Shown here one piece after another: positions 65 through 7,306 of a stretch of 64,000 nucleotides of DNA. The stretch covers positions 64,001 through 128,000 of the forward strand of contig MTLP01000007.1 of the NCBI GenBank assembly GCA_002009975.1. Direction: 5' to 3'. The notes below the pieces were generated by a model. It saw nothing but the letters and a program-made list of their open reading frames with translations, was not told the DNA's origin and ran no database searches. The translations under genes were made by a program, and so were the position numbers. Source of the stretch: Thermococcus sp. JdFR-02. Lineage in GTDB: Archaea; Methanobacteriota_B; Thermococci; Thermococcales; Thermococcaceae. How positions within the stretch are numbered: the first letter of the stretch is position 1; every line of letters begins with the position of its first letter.

Positions 65-1522
65 ATGAAAGCAAATGATAAAAAGCTCGAGATTTATATA
101 TTTACAGTTGAAGATAAGTATTTTCTCCTTTCTCCTCCAACTGGTATAGTTTTTGAAATTGATAGAAAAACTTACGAGTTTTGTAATACTGTTAGTGTAT
201 TCGGGTGGAGTAAGAGTAAGGAAGAATTTGTGAGGAAATATTCTGAGAGTGATTGGGATGCTTTAATTAGTGAGATTAAGACTGATGAAACTTTGAACAA
301 AATCTTTTTTGGAGAAAAACCTAAGCCCAACCTTCCTCTTGGAAGTATTAAACCAAAACTCTCAAGCTTATCTTTGAATGTTATGGAGGATTGCAATTTC
401 GCTTGTGTTTACTGCTATGGTAACGCAGGCACTTATAACACTCCAAACACTAAGATGGATTTTGAAACTGGGAAGAAAGCCATTGATCTTCTTATAAAGG
501 AAGGAAAGCAAGTTGTTAATATCAGCTTTTTTGGTGGAGAGCCTTTGCTTAACTTTGCACTTATTCAAAAGCTCGTTGCTTACGCTAAAGAAAAGGCTAA
601 GGAGCATAATAAAACCATCAACTTCAGCATAACAACAAATGGTTATCTTATTAACGATGAAGTTATTGACTTCTTCCTTGAGAACAACTTCACGGTAACA
701 TTGAGTTTTGATGGCCCAAAGGAAATTCAGGATTATAACAGATCTCTGAGGAGTGGTGCTGGAACTTTTGATGTTGTTTCAAAGAATGCCAAGAAAATGC
801 TTGAAAAAGGAGTCAAGGTTAGTGTTAGGACCACAATCTTACCAAGCCAGCTTGAAAAGTACTATGACATCTACCGCTTTTTTGTAGATTTCGGGTTTAG
901 AAGTGTCCACTTGGAAATGGCAACAATAAACGAAAAGCCCACGGAAGAACACATTGCGATAATCAAGGAGGCTCTGGAAAAAATTGCAAAGGATGAGTTA
1001 GGACACTACAAGGAAAAGGGGATAGTTTACACTAAGTTAAGGGATATAGTGAGGAGCATCTACTCCACGGCAGTCAAACAGTATCCTTGTGGTGCAGCGA
1101 GGACTTACTTTGGAGTCTCTGCTGATGGAACTATCTACCCCTGTCACAGATTTGTTGGAATGAGCAATTTTATTGTTGGAGGTGTTGATGACTTCAAGTG
1201 GGAGAACGAGTTTATTCAAAAGATCCTCCACTTCACTGTGGACAAGAGACCCTACTGTAGGGATTGTCCAATAAGGATGTACTGTGGAGGAGGATGTATT
1301 TACAACAACTTCTACTATAATGGCGACATTTTCAAGCCTGATGCGTTTCATTGTGCGTATATGGAAGAGTTGTTTAAGTGGGGTGTTTGGCTCTACTCAA
1401 ACCTTGATGAGGATTGGTTGAATAAGGCTTTTTCACGCTCACCCCGTGAAGGGGTGAGGGATGAGACACAAGCCGATGAATCCGAACAAAAAAGAAAGGG
1501 AGGTGATGGAAGTGGCGTTTAG
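65..1522 (+). CDS. Radical SAM/SPASM peptide maturase with N-terminal RRE-like domain (SCIFF/CteB/PapB-like thioether-forming enzyme)
   Basis: CNFACVYC radical SAM motif; FFGGEPLL, ITTNG, SFDG; SPASM cysteines PCGAA...IYPCHRF...CRDC-x5-CGGGC...HC; ~90 aa N-terminal beta-rich extension typical of an RRE; adjacent Cys-rich peptides. Confidence 0.9.
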   Translation: MKANDKKLEIYIFTVEDKYFLLSPPTGIVFEIDRKTYEFCNTVSVFGWSKSKEEFVRKYSESDWDALISEIKTDETLNKIFFGEKPKPNLPLGSIKPKLSSLSLNVMEDCNFACVYCYGNAGTYNTPNTKMDFETGKKAIDLLIKEGKQVVNISFFGGEPLLNFALIQKLVAYAKEKAKEHNKTINFSITTNGYLINDEVIDFFLENNFTVTLSFDGPKEIQDYNRSLRSGAGTFDVVSKNAKKMLEKGVKVSVRTTILPSQLEKYYDIYRFFVDFGFRSVHLEMATINEKPTEEHIAIIKEALEKIAKDELGHYKEKGIVYTKLRDIVRSIYSTAVKQYPCGAARTYFGVSADGTIYPCHRFVGMSNFIVGGVDDFKWENEFIQKILHFTVDKRPYCRDCPIRMYCGGGCIYNNFYYNGDIFKPDAFHCAYMEELFKWGVWLYSNLDEDWLNKAFSRSPREGVRDETQADESEQKRKGGDGSGV

Positions 1523-1664
1523 AAAACTGAACAAAGAAAGAGAGACAATATCACCACTATGTGCGTGGGTTGATATCTGCATAGACTACGACTATTGTGT
1601 TTGGGACGATTGTGGAAAGTTTGATGTATGTATATATGACAACTGCCTTGCGGATACTGATTAA
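1506..1664 (+). CDS. RiPP precursor peptide 1 (6 Cys, Asp-rich core)
   Basis: RBS GGGAGGTG at 1498-1505, start ATG 1506 or GTG 1512; (MEV)AFRKLNKERETISPL-CAWVDICIDYDYCVWDDCGKFDVCIYDNCLADTD. Confidence 0.85.
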   Translation: MEVAFRKLNKERETISPLCAWVDICIDYDYCVWDDCGKFDVCIYDNCLADTD

Positions 1665-1688
1665 AACTTCATACAGGAGGTGTTACAA

Positions 1689-1862
1689 ATGTTTAAAAAG
1701 CTTAATAATAAAAGCCAAAAGACCCAACCATCTCCTGAATGGTGCATTGACATCTGTATAGGTGGCGATGTATGTGGAGCATGTGATACAGCATGTGATC
1801 AGAATGACAGTTGTATTACAGATGGATGTATATTTGACTGTTATTTAGACATTACACCCTGA
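1689..1862 (+). CDS. RiPP precursor peptide 2 (8 Cys, Asp-rich core)
   Basis: RBS GGAGGTG at 1676-1682, ATG 1689; MFKKLNNKSQKTQPSPEW-CIDICIGGDVCGACDTACDQNDSCITDGCIFDCYLDITP; leader shared with precursor 1. Confidence 0.85.
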   Translation: MFKKLNNKSQKTQPSPEWCIDICIGGDVCGACDTACDQNDSCITDGCIFDCYLDITP

Positions 1863-1877
1863 AGGTCTCGTTGTTAA

Positions 1878-1889
1878 TTTTTTATTTTT
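1878..1889 (+). terminator. Oligo-T tract after the precursor genes, possible archaeal intrinsic terminator
   Basis: TTTTTTATTTTT about 15 nt after the precursor 2 stop. Confidence 0.4.
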
Positions 1890-1905
1890 ATAACCTAAAC
1901 AAAAT

Positions 1906-2793
1906 ATGGTGAGGAGAATGCTCAGAGTATTCATCAAAAAAGCACTGTATGATAGAACTGTAATTCTTGGTGTTTGTCTTTTTCTCATATTCTACTTTAA
2001 TATCCTTTTGGGAGTGAAGAACTCTACTTATTTTGAAAGCTGGCAATACTCAAAACTTGTTCTTAACTATTTTAGCGACATGCCTTCAATAGTTATTTTA
2101 ATCTTTGCAAGCATTTGGGGTTCAAGAAGCATAAACACCGAGTCTTTGCCATTGATTTTAAGTAAACCCCTTTCTCGATATAATTACTTACTTACAAAAG
2201 CCATGTCCTCTTTTTTATTCTTTTTAGCTTTGTCTCTCTTGTTATATCCAATTTTATTACTTTCTTCTCTTGCTTTTGGGACCTCTATCAGCTTAAACCT
2301 GAGCTTTGTACTAATATTTGCTCTATTTCTCTCTGCTTTCTATTCTATTGGTATGCTCATCTCAACTATAACTTCTCCTAAAAAAGCTCCTGTAGTAGCA
2401 CTCATTATAGTTATCTTATTTGTATACCTAGAATCTACATTTCACCATACAATTGAAAAAGAAGTGCTGAGGATGTACAATATTACCCAATATGATATGG
2501 CAAGATATTTTGCTACTAACGAAAAAATCTTTTGGAAAATTTCAAGTGACATATTTGCTCTTAAAGTCAAGAAAAGCTGGGAACAGTTTTTTAATCCTTT
2601 CACCCACTTTAGAATTTTGTTAACATATATAATGAGCAATGGAAACTTATGGAATTACTACCATTCTCCTGAAATATATTCTATATTCCAAATGCCTATA
2701 AAAGCGTGGAGAGCCTTGGGTTTTCTAATTCTCGATACATTATTACCATTAGTTATAACATTAAAAATCTTTAATCAAAAAGATTTAAGGTGA
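1906..2793 (+). CDS. ABC-2 type exporter permease
   Basis: About 6 TM segments; LILSKPLSRYNYLLTK motif; C-terminal FNQKDLR. Confidence 0.8.
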   Translation: MVRRMLRVFIKKALYDRTVILGVCLFLIFYFNILLGVKNSTYFESWQYSKLVLNYFSDMPSIVILIFASIWGSRSINTESLPLILSKPLSRYNYLLTKAMSSFLFFLALSLLLYPILLLSSLAFGTSISLNLSFVLIFALFLSAFYSIGMLISTITSPKKAPVVALIIVILFVYLESTFHHTIEKEVLRMYNITQYDMARYFATNEKIFWKISSDIFALKVKKSWEQFFNPFTHFRILLTYIMSNGNLWNYYHSPEIYSIFQMPIKAWRALGFLILDTLLPLVITLKIFNQKDLR

Positions 2794-2797
2794 TAAC

Positions 2798-3715
2798 ATG
2801 TGGTCGTTCAAGCTTGAAGCAAAGAACAGCTTGAGAACTAAAAAGTTTTGGTTAACAATAGTGCTGATCTCTCTAGTGTACGTTATAGCCTTTAGGGAGA
2901 TAAAGGACAACCTTAAAGCTACTACTAACCTCCAGGGGGTGTTGACTTTCAGTCTAATAGGCTATATACTTGCGAGTGCTTTTTTGTTCATAGGGTTATA
3001 TGTCCTTATTTTAGGAGCTACATCAATCAACGGTGACCTTGAAAATGGAACGGTTCAGATATCCTTAAGCAAGCCTGTTAATAGAATACAGTATCTAATC
3101 GGAAAGTTTCTTGGACAGTTCGTTTCAATCATTGTTGCACTTCTTTTCGCTACACTCCTTTCTCTTGTCATAACAAGATACTACAGCATATCCATAACAG
3201 TCAAAATAATTTCTGATCTTACAATAGCCAATGCTCTCACGCTCCTCTCAATGCTTCAGCTACTCGCACTCGGCTTACTTATCTCAACCTTCATTCGCTC
3301 TCAGAACACTGCTATCAGCGTTGTTCTCATCCTCTTCCTTGTTACCGGATTGGTGGCACCTCAAATAGTCGACAGCATGGCAAAAGACAGAGCTAGAGAA
3401 GAGTTCCACATCAAAACACCTGAAGATGCCATGAAGATGCCTGTTGAGGAACGCAACAAGTATCACCAACGTCAAATAGAACTCCAGAAGGAGTACCACT
3501 TAAGATACCTGTTCTACATTCCTCAAGTGCTCCTTGAGGATATAGTGATAGATATGCAGAGAACCACTTTTATCAAGGGGAAGATCAGAACAGAGTATAT
3601 CAGGGCTTGGGACGCCATCAAGAACAATCCTTTGAGGGTCTCTCTTCTTGTGGGACTAACCTTGGTCTATCTAATCATGGCAGTTTTTCGCTTTGTTAGA
3701 ATGGACCTGAGGTGA
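2798..3715 (+). CDS. ABC-2 type exporter permease
   Basis: LGATSINGDLENGTVQISLSKPVNRIQYLIGKF motif; C-terminal FVRMDLR. Confidence 0.85.
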   Translation: MWSFKLEAKNSLRTKKFWLTIVLISLVYVIAFREIKDNLKATTNLQGVLTFSLIGYILASAFLFIGLYVLILGATSINGDLENGTVQISLSKPVNRIQYLIGKFLGQFVSIIVALLFATLLSLVITRYYSISITVKIISDLTIANALTLLSMLQLLALGLLISTFIRSQNTAISVVLILFLVTGLVAPQIVDSMAKDRAREEFHIKTPEDAMKMPVEERNKYHQRQIELQKEYHLRYLFYIPQVLLEDIVIDMQRTTFIKGKIRTEYIRAWDAIKNNPLRVSLLVGLTLVYLIMAVFRFVRMDLR

Positions 3716-4635
3716 CAATTGTGTTGAGAATTGAGAATCTAATCAAGATTTACAAGGATATTAGGGCTTTGGATGGCTTGAATTTGGAGGTTAAAGAGGG
3801 GCAGATTTACGGATTTTTAGGACCTAACGGTGCCGGGAAGACAACAACAATCCTGAGCATTCTTGGAATGATATTCCCGCAGAAGGGCAGGATAGAAGTG
3901 CTAGGTGAGGAAGTCTTCAACGGAAAGTTCGATGAAGAGAAGCTCATCAAAGTCAAGTACATGATTGGTTACATGCCTGAGGACGCTACACTCTGGGATT
4001 TTTTAACGCCAATGCAGACGCTTGACATTATTGGTGAAGCTTTTAAAATGTCCAAAGCAGAGAGGCAAAAACGCTCAGAGGAGCTTTTAAAGCTCGTCGG
4101 CTTATGGGACGTCAAAGATAAAAAAGTTGGCAAGCTCTCAAAAGGAATGCGCCAGCGTTTATTGTTGGCACAGGCGCTCATTAATGATCCAGAACTTTTA
4201 ATCTTGGACGAGCCCATGAGCGGATTAGATCCAAAAGGTATTGCTGAATTCAAAGAGTTGATTAGGCAGTTCAACAAGGAAGGAAAAACAGTCTTCTTTT
4301 CATCGCACATCTTAGCTCATGTCGAAGAAATCTGCGACACTGTTGGCGTTATTGTTAAAGGAAAGCTGAGAGCCCAAGACTCTTTGGACAATATTAAAAA
4401 AGAGTTCTTAAGACGGGCTGGCCACACGATACTGATTGAGACAAACAAACCCATCCATATAGATCTTGAGGGAGTCAAAGTTGAGGTTATTGGTACTAAT
4501 AAATACAGGATTATCACAAGCAAAGATGTTAGGGAAGAACTCCACGACTTGATAGCAGTTCAAAACGCAAAAATTCTAACAATGCAGATTAAAGAGCCGA
4601 GCTTGGAAGAAATATTCCTAAAAATGATCGAATAA
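3712..4635 (+). CDS. ABC exporter ATP-binding protein
   Basis: Walker A GPNGAGKT, signature LSKGMRQ, Walker B LILDEP, SSH switch. Confidence 0.93.
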   Translation: MTIVLRIENLIKIYKDIRALDGLNLEVKEGQIYGFLGPNGAGKTTTILSILGMIFPQKGRIEVLGEEVFNGKFDEEKLIKVKYMIGYMPEDATLWDFLTPMQTLDIIGEAFKMSKAERQKRSEELLKLVGLWDVKDKKVGKLSKGMRQRLLLAQALINDPELLILDEPMSGLDPKGIAEFKELIRQFNKEGKTVFFSSHILAHVEEICDTVGVIVKGKLRAQDSLDNIKKEFLRRAGHTILIETNKPIHIDLEGVKVEVIGTNKYRIITSKDVREELHDLIAVQNAKILTMQIKEPSLEEIFLKMIE

Positions 4636-4704
4636 AGTTTTTCATGTTCATCCCGTGAAATAATGAGGCATATGCTGATGAGACAGATTTAAGGGAGGTG
4701 GGGG
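4630..4704 (+). repeat. Diverged copy of 1420-1505 (hairpin plus RBS module upstream of precursor genes)
   Basis: TTTCATGTTCATCCCGTGAA vs TTTCACGCTCACCCCGTGAA (17/20); ATGAGGCATATGCTGATGA vs ATGAGACACAAGCCGATGA (15/19); both end in AAGGGAGGTG. Confidence 0.7.
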
Positions 4705-4829
4705 ATGAAGTTGGAGATTTTAAACAAAGAAGAAACCCTTAAAGGAATGCTACCAAACTCCTGCCTACTCCAGCAGACTGGATTTGTTGGTGGCTAGAGG
4801 ACTACTGTGATCTTCACGAGCCATATTGA
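4705..4829 (+). pseudogene. Third RiPP precursor, frameshifted
   Basis: RBS then MKLEILNKEETLKGMLPNSCLL... (stop at 4795-4797); the -1 frame reads ...PADWICWWLEDYCDLHEPY* to 4829; followed by a T7 tract. Confidence 0.6.
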
Positions 4830-4929
4830 ATTATGAGCCAATTGTTCCTCCCCACTTTTTTTAATTATTTAGGGAGTAGGAGGTGCTACCTTCATAATTC
4901 AAGCACAGGATAATAAAGGAGGGAGTGTA

Positions 4930-5976
4930 TTGAACCAGAGAGTATTTTTAACAAGTGTTAAAAGAATATCAGAGATTGCAATAATCTCTATTTTAATTCT
5001 GCTTATCCTGACATCACTGACTGTTGAAGCCAAGAAGAAAACCCTTATTAACAATAACATGAACCTGCCTCTTTTCTTATGGTACGCTTCAAACAAAACT
5101 GCACAAGAGGAAGCCAAAGTACTTGGAATGAATCAAACAGAGTACTTAGAGTACGTAATCCTTAGAAAATTCGGTTTGAACAAACCGCTCTATGTCTTGA
5201 TTCCCCAACAAATTAAAAGCGCGATAACTTATATTGGGCAGAATAGGGAGTATATACTCATCTCCACTTTTAGAACTGTTCTTCTTCTCCTACTCGTTCA
5301 AGGTTTTATCTTGGTATTTGGTCTGCTCATTGGAGTTCTAGCTGGTTATAAAAGAGACGGCTTTTTGGATAAGCTAGTTTCAACATTGGCGCCTGTGTCA
5401 AACGGAGTTCCCAGCTGGTGGATTGCGGGCATGTTACTCCTTATTCTTTCTCTCAAATTTAATCTATTTCCCGCTTCGGGATATATGTCAATACCTCCAA
5501 AGACGGGTCTTTATTATTATTATCTTGATATTGCTAAGCACTTAGTTCTCCCATTTTTAGCCCTCTTTCTAGCTCGTTTCTGGGAATATGCTTTTATTGT
5601 TAGGAGCTTAATTTTTGAGGAGTTCAAAAGGGATTATATACTCGTTGCTGAAGCTAAAGGTGTTCCAAAAAAGAAAATTTTATGGGGACATGCCCTAAGA
5701 AATATCCTTCCCTCATTCCTTACCTTCACAACATACAACTTTCTCGACCTGCTCACAAGTGTCTTTGTGATTGATATAGTTTTCGATTTAAGAGGACTTG
5801 GGACTTTGTTAAGGATAAGCTTTTTCAGAACACTTGTAAGTGCTAGGGGAATTTTCACAACATTGAGACCAGAGCTTTTCCTTTCTATTTGTATTATTAT
5901 CATGATCCTGTACTTGGTTGTATCCGCAATCTTAGAGACCCTCTACATTTACCTCGATCCAAGAATTGGGGGATAA
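4930..5976 (+). CDS. Peptide ABC transporter permease (OppB/DppB-like)
   Basis: EAA loop DYILVAEAKGV...HALRN; C-terminal YLDPRI. Confidence 0.85.
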   Translation: MNQRVFLTSVKRISEIAIISILILLILTSLTVEAKKKTLINNNMNLPLFLWYASNKTAQEEAKVLGMNQTEYLEYVILRKFGLNKPLYVLIPQQIKSAITYIGQNREYILISTFRTVLLLLLVQGFILVFGLLIGVLAGYKRDGFLDKLVSTLAPVSNGVPSWWIAGMLLLILSLKFNLFPASGYMSIPPKTGLYYYYLDIAKHLVLPFLALFLARFWEYAFIVRSLIFEEFKRDYILVAEAKGVPKKKILWGHALRNILPSFLTFTTYNFLDLLTSVFVIDIVFDLRGLGTLLRISFFRTLVSARGIFTTLRPELFLSICIIIMILYLVVSAILETLYIYLDPRIGG

Positions 5977-5980
5977 GTAA

Positions 5981-7306
5981 ATGATTGAAGAAAAATCCAT
6001 TAAATATGGTTTCCTGATCATAACCTCTTTCATCCTTTTATCTCTCCTAACTCCCTTTATAGTTCCTGAGGAAAGGGTTAAGTACTGGAACGATGGTAAT
6101 TACTGGATTAAGAATCCTAAACTTGCGCCACCCAAGTGGTACAACTATTTTACAAGCAAAGACAGAACACCAACTGAGATTCTCACTCCAAAACAAAAGA
6201 AAATTGAGAATTTTAATTCTTTAAGGATGTACAATTTCTCCTTTGAATATGACTACACTTATTATGTTCCTCCTCAAGATATTTGGATAAATCTTAATGT
6301 TAATTCGAGCAATGCACTTTATGAGGTTTCCTTTATCCGTCCAGATAGGATCAATATTCTGCTCCTTCAAGGGGAAGTCCAAAAGGGAGAAATCTCCCTA
6401 AAAACACGTCAAGAAGTCAGAAAAACTGTCATGAACTTTGCAATGGAGAAGCTTGATGTAAAGACATTCAACCAGCTCACCTTCAATCCCTTTGAATACC
6501 TTTTTTCATCCAAAAGCGGAAATCCTCTGAAGGGTGTTTATAGAATTGATGTTGTTATTTACTCTTTTAATCAGAGTGATGTTATTGAAGAGCCGAGCAT
6601 TAGAATTGTGGGAAGTTGCTATGGGATTTTAGGGACTGATAATATGGGAAGAGACTTATTTGTGGGTTTTATATGGGCTATGAGGAATACACTATTTTTA
6701 GCTTTATTTGTCGCTCTCTTCACAGTGTTTTTTGGAACACTCTTTGGTTTAATAACTGGTTACATAGATTCAAGATTAAGTAAAGCTCTTGAATTTGTAA
6801 ACAAAGTTTTCCTTGCTCTTCCTGTTCTTCCAACTGCTTTAATCATAACATATCTCATCTCGGTTCAGAGTGTGGGTAAGAGCGTGGAGCTTTCAACATT
6901 TGAGTTTTCAATTATACTGAGTGCATTACTTTGGGGAAAACCTGCACGGAGTATAAAGGCAATTGTTGAACAAGAAAAGGTTCAAGAATACGTTACTGTT
7001 GCTGAAAGCATTGGTGCAAGCAAATTCTATATTCTAAGAAGACATATATTGAAAAAAGTCCTCCCTTACTCTTTTGCAGTTCTCTCAATAACAGTTCCAA
7101 AGGTCATTGTTCTTATTTCGCTTTTTGGATTTTTTGGTATCGTTCCTGGGATTAATTGGGGCTCTTTCATGGCTGAAGCATTGGAAAGGGGTGGATTTTA
7201 TGGTGGTGTTTGGTGGTGGATAATTCCACCAGGATTAGCAATAGCCTTGATTGGGATTGGCTTCGTCTTGATAAATAAGGGAATAGAAAAATGGTTAGGA
7301 ATATAG
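5981..7306 (+). CDS. Peptide ABC transporter permease (OppC/DppC-like)
   Basis: LGTDNMGRD, EYVTVAESIGAS...RHIL, WWWIIPPG. Confidence 0.85.
   Translation: MIEEKSIKYGFLIITSFILLSLLTPFIVPEERVKYWNDGNYWIKNPKLAPPKWYNYFTSKDRTPTEILTPKQKKIENFNSLRMYNFSFEYDYTYYVPPQDIWINLNVNSSNALYEVSFIRPDRINILLLQGEVQKGEISLKTRQEVRKTVMNFAMEKLDVKTFNQLTFNPFEYLFSSKSGNPLKGVYRIDVVIYSFNQSDVIEEPSIRIVGSCYGILGTDNMGRDLFVGFIWAMRNTLFLALFVALFTVFFGTLFGLITGYIDSRLSKALEFVNKVFLALPVLPTALIITYLISVQSVGKSVELSTFEFSIILSALLWGKPARSIKAIVEQEKVQEYVTVAESIGASKFYILRRHILKKVLPYSFAVLSITVPKVIVLISLFGFFGIVPGINWGSFMAEALERGGFYGGVWWWIIPPGLAIALIGIGFVLINKGIEKWLGI

Follow-up and report, generated by a model that had tools for sequence, protein, structure and literature searches.

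Does a hyperthermophilic archaeon of the family Thermococcaceae encode its own system for stapling small peptides through their cysteines? The question is raised by a gene cluster at the beginning of the window, by which we mean the whole stretch of 64,000 nucleotides analysed here (Thermococcus sp. JdFR-02, GCA_002009975.1, contig MTLP01000007.1; G000:C5:64001-128000 in our numbering of genomes and contigs). Positions 65 to 4635 of its forward strand encode a peptide maturase, two short peptides, two ATP-binding cassette (ABC) permeases of the ABC-2 type and an ATPase, densely packed on this single strand with intergenic gaps that are overlaps or a few bases. An earlier note on this DNA had described such a unit, with a broken third peptide at its end, and all of these parts are found in place. 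We consider it likely that the locus is a cluster for peptides that the ribosome makes and that are modified after translation (RiPPs), of the ranthipeptide kind. Its products are very probably small exported peptides with sulfur-to-carbon staples. In its probable mode of working it resembles the PapB/freyrasin and CteB/SCIFF systems, although it stands outside those curated families.

The first gene (65-1522, forward strand) encodes a 485-aa peptide maturase of the RiPP recognition element (RRE)/radical S-adenosylmethionine (SAM)/SPASM kind, hereafter the type-1 maturase. It matches PF04055 (E-value = 2.2e-25), PF13353 (Fer4_12) and PF13186, the last of which (SPASM) covers residues 342-402 with 22.1 bits against a cut-off of 21.5. 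The CX3CX2C motif of the SAM-cleaving 4Fe-4S cluster (C110, C114 and C117; positions 392-415) is invariant among 86 aligned homologues. The SPASM region, with its two auxiliary clusters, follows at positions 1088-1354, and its seven cysteines (C342, C360, C398, C401, C407, C411 and C430) either do not vary across the homologue alignments or reach at least 90% conservation there. By sequence, the best solved relative is CteB (5wgg; E-value = 2.6e-58, residues 17-443). An AlphaFold2 model of the maturase, built with 86 homologues, reaches a mean predicted local distance difference test score (pLDDT) of 91.4. In a Foldseek comparison of the maturase with the PDB, three CteB chains rank first (E-value = 1e-28 to 1e-30 over 445-460 columns, with a template modelling score of 0.85-0.90 normalised to the target), and the anaerobic sulfatase maturase anSME comes next, over about 375-393 columns. 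For the N-terminus of the model, DSSP assigns strands at residues 11-15, 18-23 and 28-32 and helices at 34-58, 61-73 and 75-82. Three strands followed by three helices are the layout of an RRE. The CteB alignment and the modelled fold, together with the complex model described below, support the identification of residues 11-82 or so (95-310) as an RRE-like domain. The RRE-radical SAM-SPASM architecture proposed in the earlier note is confirmed by Pfam for the radical SAM and SPASM parts; its RRE is not recovered by Pfam and stands on the CteB alignment, the fold and the complex model.

Family models place the enzyme among thioether-forming maturases. The best NCBIfam match is PapB (NF047865; 279.9 bits, cut-off 340), followed by the nif11-like peptide maturase (TIGR04064; 276.7 bits, cut-off 518.7), QhpD (TIGR03906; 254.8 bits, cut-off 453) and the SCIFF maturase (TIGR03974; 254.8 bits, cut-off 425). 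Lower scores are obtained for the anaerobic sulfatase maturase (TIGR03942; 130.4 bits, cut-off 349) and the CrpC family (TIGR04463; 95.5 bits, cut-off 525), and sactisynthase models also score far lower than the leading families, RumMC for example at 101 bits. None of these cut-offs is reached. The top scores all belong to maturases that form thioethers on peptides or proteins. Since no curated cut-off is passed, we describe the enzyme as PapB-like and not as a member of the PapB family. The likeness to CteB and PapB drawn in the earlier note is upheld, CteB being the nearest solved relative by both sequence and fold and PapB the best family score. A grouping with anaerobic sulfatase maturases, which the same note had named as the contrary outcome, was not seen: the peptide-maturase models score far above the sulfatase maturase, and the anSME structures rank below CteB.

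Two short genes follow, each with its own ribosome-binding box. Peptide A (1512-1664, forward strand) is 50 aa long when read from GTG 1512; its basic leader takes up 16 aa, and the core contains 6 Cys and 9 Asp, with an Asp at +3 or +4 of each of the 6 Cys. In-frame alternative starts exist at 1506 and 1461, the ATG at 1461 being the one in the open reading frame list. The ribosome-binding box GGAGGTGAT (1499-1507) abuts ATG 1506, and we infer for this reason that GTG 1512 is the real start. Peptide B (1689-1862, forward strand) is 57 aa long from ATG 1689, with a GGAGGTG box 6 nt 5' of the start, the leader M-F-K-K-L-N and a core with 8 Cys and 8 Asp, where 6 of the 8 Cys have an Asp at +3 or +4. 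The two boxes and the alignment of the leaders agree with the pair of peptides, sharing a basic leader and rich in Cys and Asp, that had been noticed before. A search with the back-translated leader found peptide B as the sole exact match in the genome. Pfam and NCBIfam offer no family for either peptide: B has one weak unrelated NCBIfam hit, and no match to the SCIFF precursor was obtained.

The significance of the two peptides becomes clearer when the cluster is compared across the family. Among 97 family genomes searched, 15 have an enzyme match at an E-value of 1e-60 or better, and nine carry an orthologue of the type-1 maturase at 67-87% identity: G000 itself, G119 (one genus), and G063, G064, G086, G097, G103, G114 and G033 (another genus). 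The nine loci encode 18 peptides, one to three each, of which 17 lie directly after the maturase; the third peptide of G063 is found about 500 nt further downstream. Aligned, the 18 peptides exhibit the leader M-F-[KR]-[KR]-L-[NT]; after a further 7-9 residues come a Pro and the first Cys, and F2, L5 and P16 are invariant. In the cores, 113 Cys stand against about 125 Asp, nearly equal numbers, and an Asp occurs at +3 or +4 for 92 of the 113 Cys. Shuffled cores give a mean of 36.8 (standard deviation 4.7) and none of 2000 shuffles reaches 92, in a test where the mutual relatedness of the 18 peptides overstates their independence. The Asp is found at +3 (C-x-x-D) in 52 cases and at +4 (C-x-x-x-D) in 42. 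Within one genus the enzymes are 86-93% identical and the best-matching cores mostly 23-44%. With enzymes and leaders kept while the cores diverge, the pattern is one of a conserved leader and a variable core, which is typical of RiPPs. Precursors of the type-1 family are rare and lack annotation: 7 of them were returned by a word-indexed search of 5.8 billion proteins, and 11, at an E-value of 0.001 or better and all built alike, by a profile search that went exhaustively through 1.84 billion representatives. Those with a name are hypothetical proteins of Thermococcus species, T. celericrescens and T. thermotolerans among them.

The way in which the leader could be held was approached by a complex model of the maturase with peptide B, with alignments as input. 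This complex scores 0.81, and the best of 3 controls scores 0.00; among solved complexes 58 of 80 reach the mark used, among mismatched pairs 2 of 110, which is a rough guide only, as custom alignments were used here. Between runs, at least 23% of the contacts agree. The confident contacts link peptide residues 1-7, that is the conserved leader, to maturase residues 21, 27-33, 35-36 and 70-77. Of these, 27-33 and 70-77 are the third strand and the third helix of the N-terminal domain, and further leader contacts are predicted at 332-335 and 441-457. Lying on the third strand and third helix is the usual way in which an RRE holds its leader. The model thus supports the docking of the leader on the RRE, without amounting to proof.

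From these elements the following route can be proposed. The peptides of 50 and 57 aa would be translated from their own ribosome-binding sites, and the basic leader (M-F-[KR]-[KR]-L-N ... P) would dock in strand form against the RRE's third strand and third helix. The radical SAM centre (C110, C114, C117) would cleave SAM, and the radical so formed would take a hydrogen from the side chain of an Asp located 3-4 residues past a Cys. Helped by the two SPASM clusters, the Cys sulfur would be bonded to this carbon, which the analogy of PapB and QhpD suggests is most likely the Asp beta carbon. With these steps repeated over the core, peptide A would receive up to 6 small rings in line and peptide B 6-8. 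The leader would be removed, and two ABC systems would handle the acidic stapled products; export is the probable task of one of them, and protection of the producer may be that of the other.

This route is modelled on enzymes characterised elsewhere. PapB links the Cys sulfur to the Asp beta carbon in six Cys-X3-Asp motifs and accepts spacings of 0-6 residues (PMC9413430). Like PapB/PapA, the freyrasin system of Paenibacillus polymyxa, the Thermococcus cluster combines an RRE/radical SAM/SPASM enzyme with a short precursor whose core repeats a Cys with an Asp a few residues on. It differs in that C-x-x-D is as common as C-x-x-x-D, in its hyperthermophilic archaeal host, in its two ABC systems, and in an enzyme that stays below the PapB cut-off (279.9 against 340) and belongs to another starred clade of our tree than two PapB-passing enzymes. 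QhpD, which matures quinohemoprotein amine dehydrogenase, relies on an RRE and forms side-chain thioethers between Cys and Asp or Glu (PMC13692751). It resembles the Thermococcus enzyme in its RRE and in the thioethers predicted here, and its model gives 254.8 bits; the cut-off, however, is 453, no dehydrogenase subunit genes are found nearby, and the substrates here are 50-57-aa peptides with hypervariable cores. With CteB/CteA, which makes the SCIFF-type ranthipeptide thermocellin in Clostridium thermocellum, the enzyme shares about 27-28% identity over its full length and the fold including the N-terminal domain. It falls short of the SCIFF maturase model (254.8 against 425), its precursors do not match the SCIFF precursor, and SCIFF enzymes form a separate Bacillota clade.

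The same genes could instead produce a sactipeptide, in which the Cys sulfur is linked to alpha carbons. Enzyme architecture alone does not separate the two kinds, the PDB title of the best structural match still names a sactipeptide enzyme, and a subtilosin-like cluster has been proposed in other Thermococcus (10.64898/2026.07.27.741052). A sactipeptide is nevertheless unlikely, because the best scores are those of PapB, nif11, QhpD and SCIFF, with the sactisynthases far lower (RumMC, 101 bits), and because Cys are paired with Asp at +3/+4 almost one to one, as in the side-chain links made by PapB (PMC9413430) and QhpD (PMC13692751). We judge it quite improbable that the peptides carry no thioethers at all, being modified by other radical chemistry (carbon-carbon links, epimerisation) or binding a metal or iron-sulfur cluster through their Cys/Asp cores. 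SPASM enzymes do catalyse many reactions, several non-thioether maturases appear among the weaker NCBIfam matches, and acidic Cys/Asp-rich peptides could chelate metals. The four closest families, however, all make Cys thioethers, the fold is nearest to CteB, and a fixed Cys-Asp spacing within hypervariable cores is predicted by an enzyme motif rather than by a metal site.

A number of points weigh against our preferred interpretation, a ranthipeptide cluster. Pfam detects no PqqD/RRE domain in maturase residues 1-100, even at an E-value of 0.1, and the maturase stays below the curated cut-off of every NCBIfam family, PapB included. The mixed Cys-Asp spacing departs from the strict CX3D of freyrasin, and the relatedness of the 18 peptides tempers the shuffling result. 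In the complex model, peptide B, at a pLDDT of 35-36, has a poor fold of its own. CteB has reportedly been crystallised with part of its peptide, and the high score may reflect a likeness to that solved complex. Finally, no peptidase gene is found in the unit or in the approximately 8 kb examined upstream, which leaves the final product undefined; on the absence of a leader protease from the unit, the earlier note was right.

How widely does the association of enzyme and peptides hold? Type-2 maturases, about 37-41% identical to the type-1 enzyme, occur in G033, G063, G064 and G065, and further maturase types in G111, G082, G083, G097, G020 and G001. Peptides adjoin the maturase at 9 of 9 type-1 loci, 4 of 4 type-2 loci and 5 of 5 more distant Thermococcaceae loci examined, as expected in the earlier note, which had looked to adjacent peptides beside homologous enzymes. 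The distant type-3 loci (L010, L011, L105, L106 and L107) carry 1-4 tandem peptides of 31-42 aa with a leader like M-R-A-L-[VT]-[KR] and a core like C-x4-D-x2-C-E. They are located at L105 2681-3180, L010 2876-3113, L011 1255-1383 (reverse strand), in L107, and at L106 2852-2947 (in the enzyme's orientation). Since even these loci encode peptides, the linkage of enzyme and peptide holds over the whole archaeal clade. At least three precursor families can be distinguished: one with the M-F-K-K-L-N leader and C-x(2,3)-D cores, a Cys/Trp-rich one, and the M-R-A-L-[VT]-[KR] tandem peptides.

The relationship to bacterial enzymes was examined in a quick maximum-likelihood tree of 86 enzymes and 458 columns, unrooted and with SH-aLRT support only; its outgroup consists of the best 80 loci, nearly all of them bacterial, from at least 600 stretches. 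All 17 Thermococcaceae enzymes fall in one starred clade (support 99), apart from three groups formed by the bacterial matches listed. An NCBIfam scan of 7 bacterial representatives and 3 Thermococcaceae enzymes was used to label the bacterial groups. A large Bacillota clade passes the SCIFF cut-off in its scanned representatives, a small clade separate from that of the Thermococcaceae passes the PapB cut-off (two enzymes, 399 and 384 bits), and in a third clade one enzyme exceeds the nif11 cut-off. No family cut-off is reached by the Thermococcaceae enzymes of types 2 and 3. Among the matches listed, the nearest bacterial enzymes show 24-32% identity in the alignment and at most 37% in the best tblastn segments. 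A recent transfer from bacteria was not found, as the nearest bacterial enzymes listed lie outside the Thermococcaceae clade of this unrooted quick tree. Public copies of the maturase are annotated as 'hypothetical', 'radical SAM' or 'SPASM domain-containing' proteins from Thermococcus species, and cultured Thermococcus species carry orthologues. The genome also has a second SPASM-type radical SAM gene, 29% identical, on another contig (G000:C22:25749-26762; L002 1378-2586) that seems G+C-richer than the window. It could be another maturase or belong to a contaminant contig.

Two published archaeal cases bear on the novelty of the system. CrpC of Methanococcus voltae was reported in 2026 to install ranthionine links on a large protein with Cys-rich repeats and C-x-x-Q/D motifs (PMC13692751), so that the view of the earlier note that the characterised examples are all bacterial is out of date. 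Although CrpC is an archaeal RRE/radical SAM/SPASM enzyme as well, it belongs to TIGR04463, a model that the Thermococcus maturase matches with 95.5 bits against a cut-off of 525, and its substrate is a large protein; the screen in that study was of proteins of at least 100 aa only (PMC13692751). The second case is the subtilosin-like cluster proposed in Thermococcus celer and T. nautili, whose precursor is subtilosin A-like with three Cys and aromatic acceptors and which is argued to be a recent bacterial transfer (10.64898/2026.07.27.741052). It too belongs to this archaeal family and is a radical SAM peptide cluster that includes an ABC ATPase, whereas the precursors described here are Cys/Asp-rich and the enzyme lies within the 17-member Thermococcaceae clade. 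Archaeal ranthipeptide clusters have already been counted by genome mining (PMC12144867; PMC13635244), and we accordingly present the locus as a real, intact and conserved cluster of a known kind. No paper on ranthipeptides in Thermococcales was found in the library searched, and the supplementary lists of PMC12144867 and PMC13692751 may include such clusters.

The unit does not begin at position 65, as the earlier note had it. Directly upstream and on the same strand lie an ABC-2-type permease (G000:C5:62186-62983; L008 10186-10983) and an ABC ATPase (G000:C5:62993-63985; L008 10993-11985), and this pair precedes the orthologous maturase in G033 and G064 as well, at 72-77% identity. Further 5' are genes for an aminotransferase, a sodium:alanine symporter and alanyl-tRNA synthetase, and 3' of the unit a histidyl-tRNA synthetase gene lies on the opposite strand. 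None of these four flanking genes was found in the stretches taken around the clusters of G033 (L112) and G064 (L113). The surroundings of the cluster thus differ between these genomes, in keeping with its patchy occurrence in 9 of 97 genomes.

Within the unit, the transport genes on the forward strand are ABC-2 permease a (1906-2793, 295 aa; PF12679, E-value = 4.6e-15; 58% identical in G119), ABC-2 permease b (2798-3715, 305 aa; PF12679, E-value = 1.2e-45; 42-59% identical in G119, G033 and G064) and a DrrA-like ABC ATPase (3712-4635, 307 aa; PF00005 and PF13732), whose start overlaps the stop of permease b. The ATPase scores 233.8 bits with TIGR01188, below the cut-off of 312, and its identity is 83% in G119 and 71% in G033. 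Between its peptides and the conserved permease, the G033 cluster (L112 4973-7939) has three additional permease genes, which encode 252, 218 and 517 aa; the transporter part therefore varies between genomes. In the G064 cluster the downstream ATPase is apparently missing. A T-rich spacer (1863-1905, forward strand, with TTTTTT and TTTTT) separates the peptides from the transporter genes and, judged by its letters, may serve either as an archaeal terminator that lets some transcription through or as an internal promoter. T runs are present both here, 3' of peptide B, and 3' of the broken third peptide (4838-4860); as possible archaeal terminators, these might govern how many peptide transcripts there are for each transporter transcript. 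A reading of the locus as a defence system was rejected, because the matches that PADLOC gave for six cluster proteins were all generic and partial: viperin models picked up the radical SAM core, and ATPase models the ABC ATPases.

The third peptide turned out to be of a different nature. The gene (4705-4829, forward strand) has a GGAGGTG box, but the frame with the leader and first Cys stops at 4797, and the Cys/Trp-rich end lies in another frame that stops at 4829. This end matches intact 48-50-aa peptides that follow the type-2 enzymes of G033, G063, G064 and G065. A MAFFT alignment with the intact type-2 precursors reveals a 14-nt gap in the third peptide, which shifts the frame. Immediately upstream, about 65 nt of noncoding sequence (4640-4704, forward strand) align with the type-2 genes of G033 and G065 as a remnant of the maturase 3' end; they also align with the 3' end of the type-1 enzyme gene (1440-1505). 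No type-2 enzyme was found anywhere in G000, a genome that is 99.99% complete. From the 14-nt gap, the 65-nt enzyme remnant and the missing type-2 enzyme, we read the segment as a decayed type-2 cluster beside the intact type-1 cluster. The peptide had rightly been called broken in the earlier note; its leader, though, is not that of peptides A and B, and it belongs to another precursor family. A programmed frameshift was rejected, since the intact relatives have no shift, the gap is of 14 nt and the cognate enzyme is gone. An assembly error is unlikely, as contigs of two further runs from other studies, made with one assembly pipeline, have the same letters over 4404-4921 with zero differences.

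With an adjacent type-2 cluster so clearly decayed, the whole unit might be a decaying or silent remnant that yields no product in this organism. We hold this to be very improbable. All type-1 genes are intact and have good ribosome-binding sites, the letters are identical in the contigs of three runs, and G119, which has the closest orthologous cluster, keeps the same intact genes at 42-87% identity.

Downstream of the broken peptide, on the forward strand, are genes for an OppB-like permease (4930-5976, 348 aa; PF00528, E-value = 8.5e-27) and an OppC-like permease (5981-7306, 441 aa; PF00528 at residues 252-437), the latter with an N-terminal extension of about 210 aa that forms a long extracytoplasmic stretch. 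Type-2 peptides elsewhere also precede an OppB/OppC-like pair, as at 4930-7306 of the window. The OppB of the window is 38% identical over 197 aa to the permease after the G033 type-2 peptide and 28% identical to the permease ending the G033 type-1 cluster. A similar pair follows the type-1 clusters of G033 and G064 (34-35% identity) and not that of G119. In several Thermococcaceae genomes, Opp-like pairs stand after radical SAM peptide clusters, and these clusters are of two types (window 4930-7306; L016 3125-4418; L112 875-3107). No binding-protein or ATPase gene is found beside them. These pairs may take up or sense peptides.

As a tentative and rather doubtful proposal, the Thermococcaceae would have their own radiation of RRE/radical SAM/SPASM maturases, acting on at least three unrelated precursor families and making hypervariable exported thioether products for strain-level antagonism or signalling at 80 degrees C or above, with Opp-like uptake or sensing. 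Antagonism or signalling at the level of strains is the favoured role because of the hypervariable cores. To specialists the cluster is no surprise in kind. Its interest lies in an unannotated precursor family and in a good target for the bench: a single enzyme, its two natural substrates and, on these, a defined leader and a predicted motif. The chemistry is familiar from bacteria and is found here in a separate lineage that, judged by the bacterial matches listed and an unrooted tree, is limited to Thermococcus-like archaea. In the available parts of the literature found, no archaeal ranthipeptide product is described, archaeal clusters are known as genome-mining counts, and the one characterised archaeal enzyme, CrpC, acts on a large protein. 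PapB is already in use as a promiscuous peptide macrocyclase, and a hyperthermophilic relative that naturally deals with mixed Cys-Asp spacings could prove a robust tool. The contrast between conserved enzymes and hypervariable cores prompts one to ask whether peptides are a means by which these archaea fight or talk. If the proposal is true, hyperthermophilic archaea would have a communication or warfare system built on peptides, and macrocyclising enzymes that withstand heat would be available from them.

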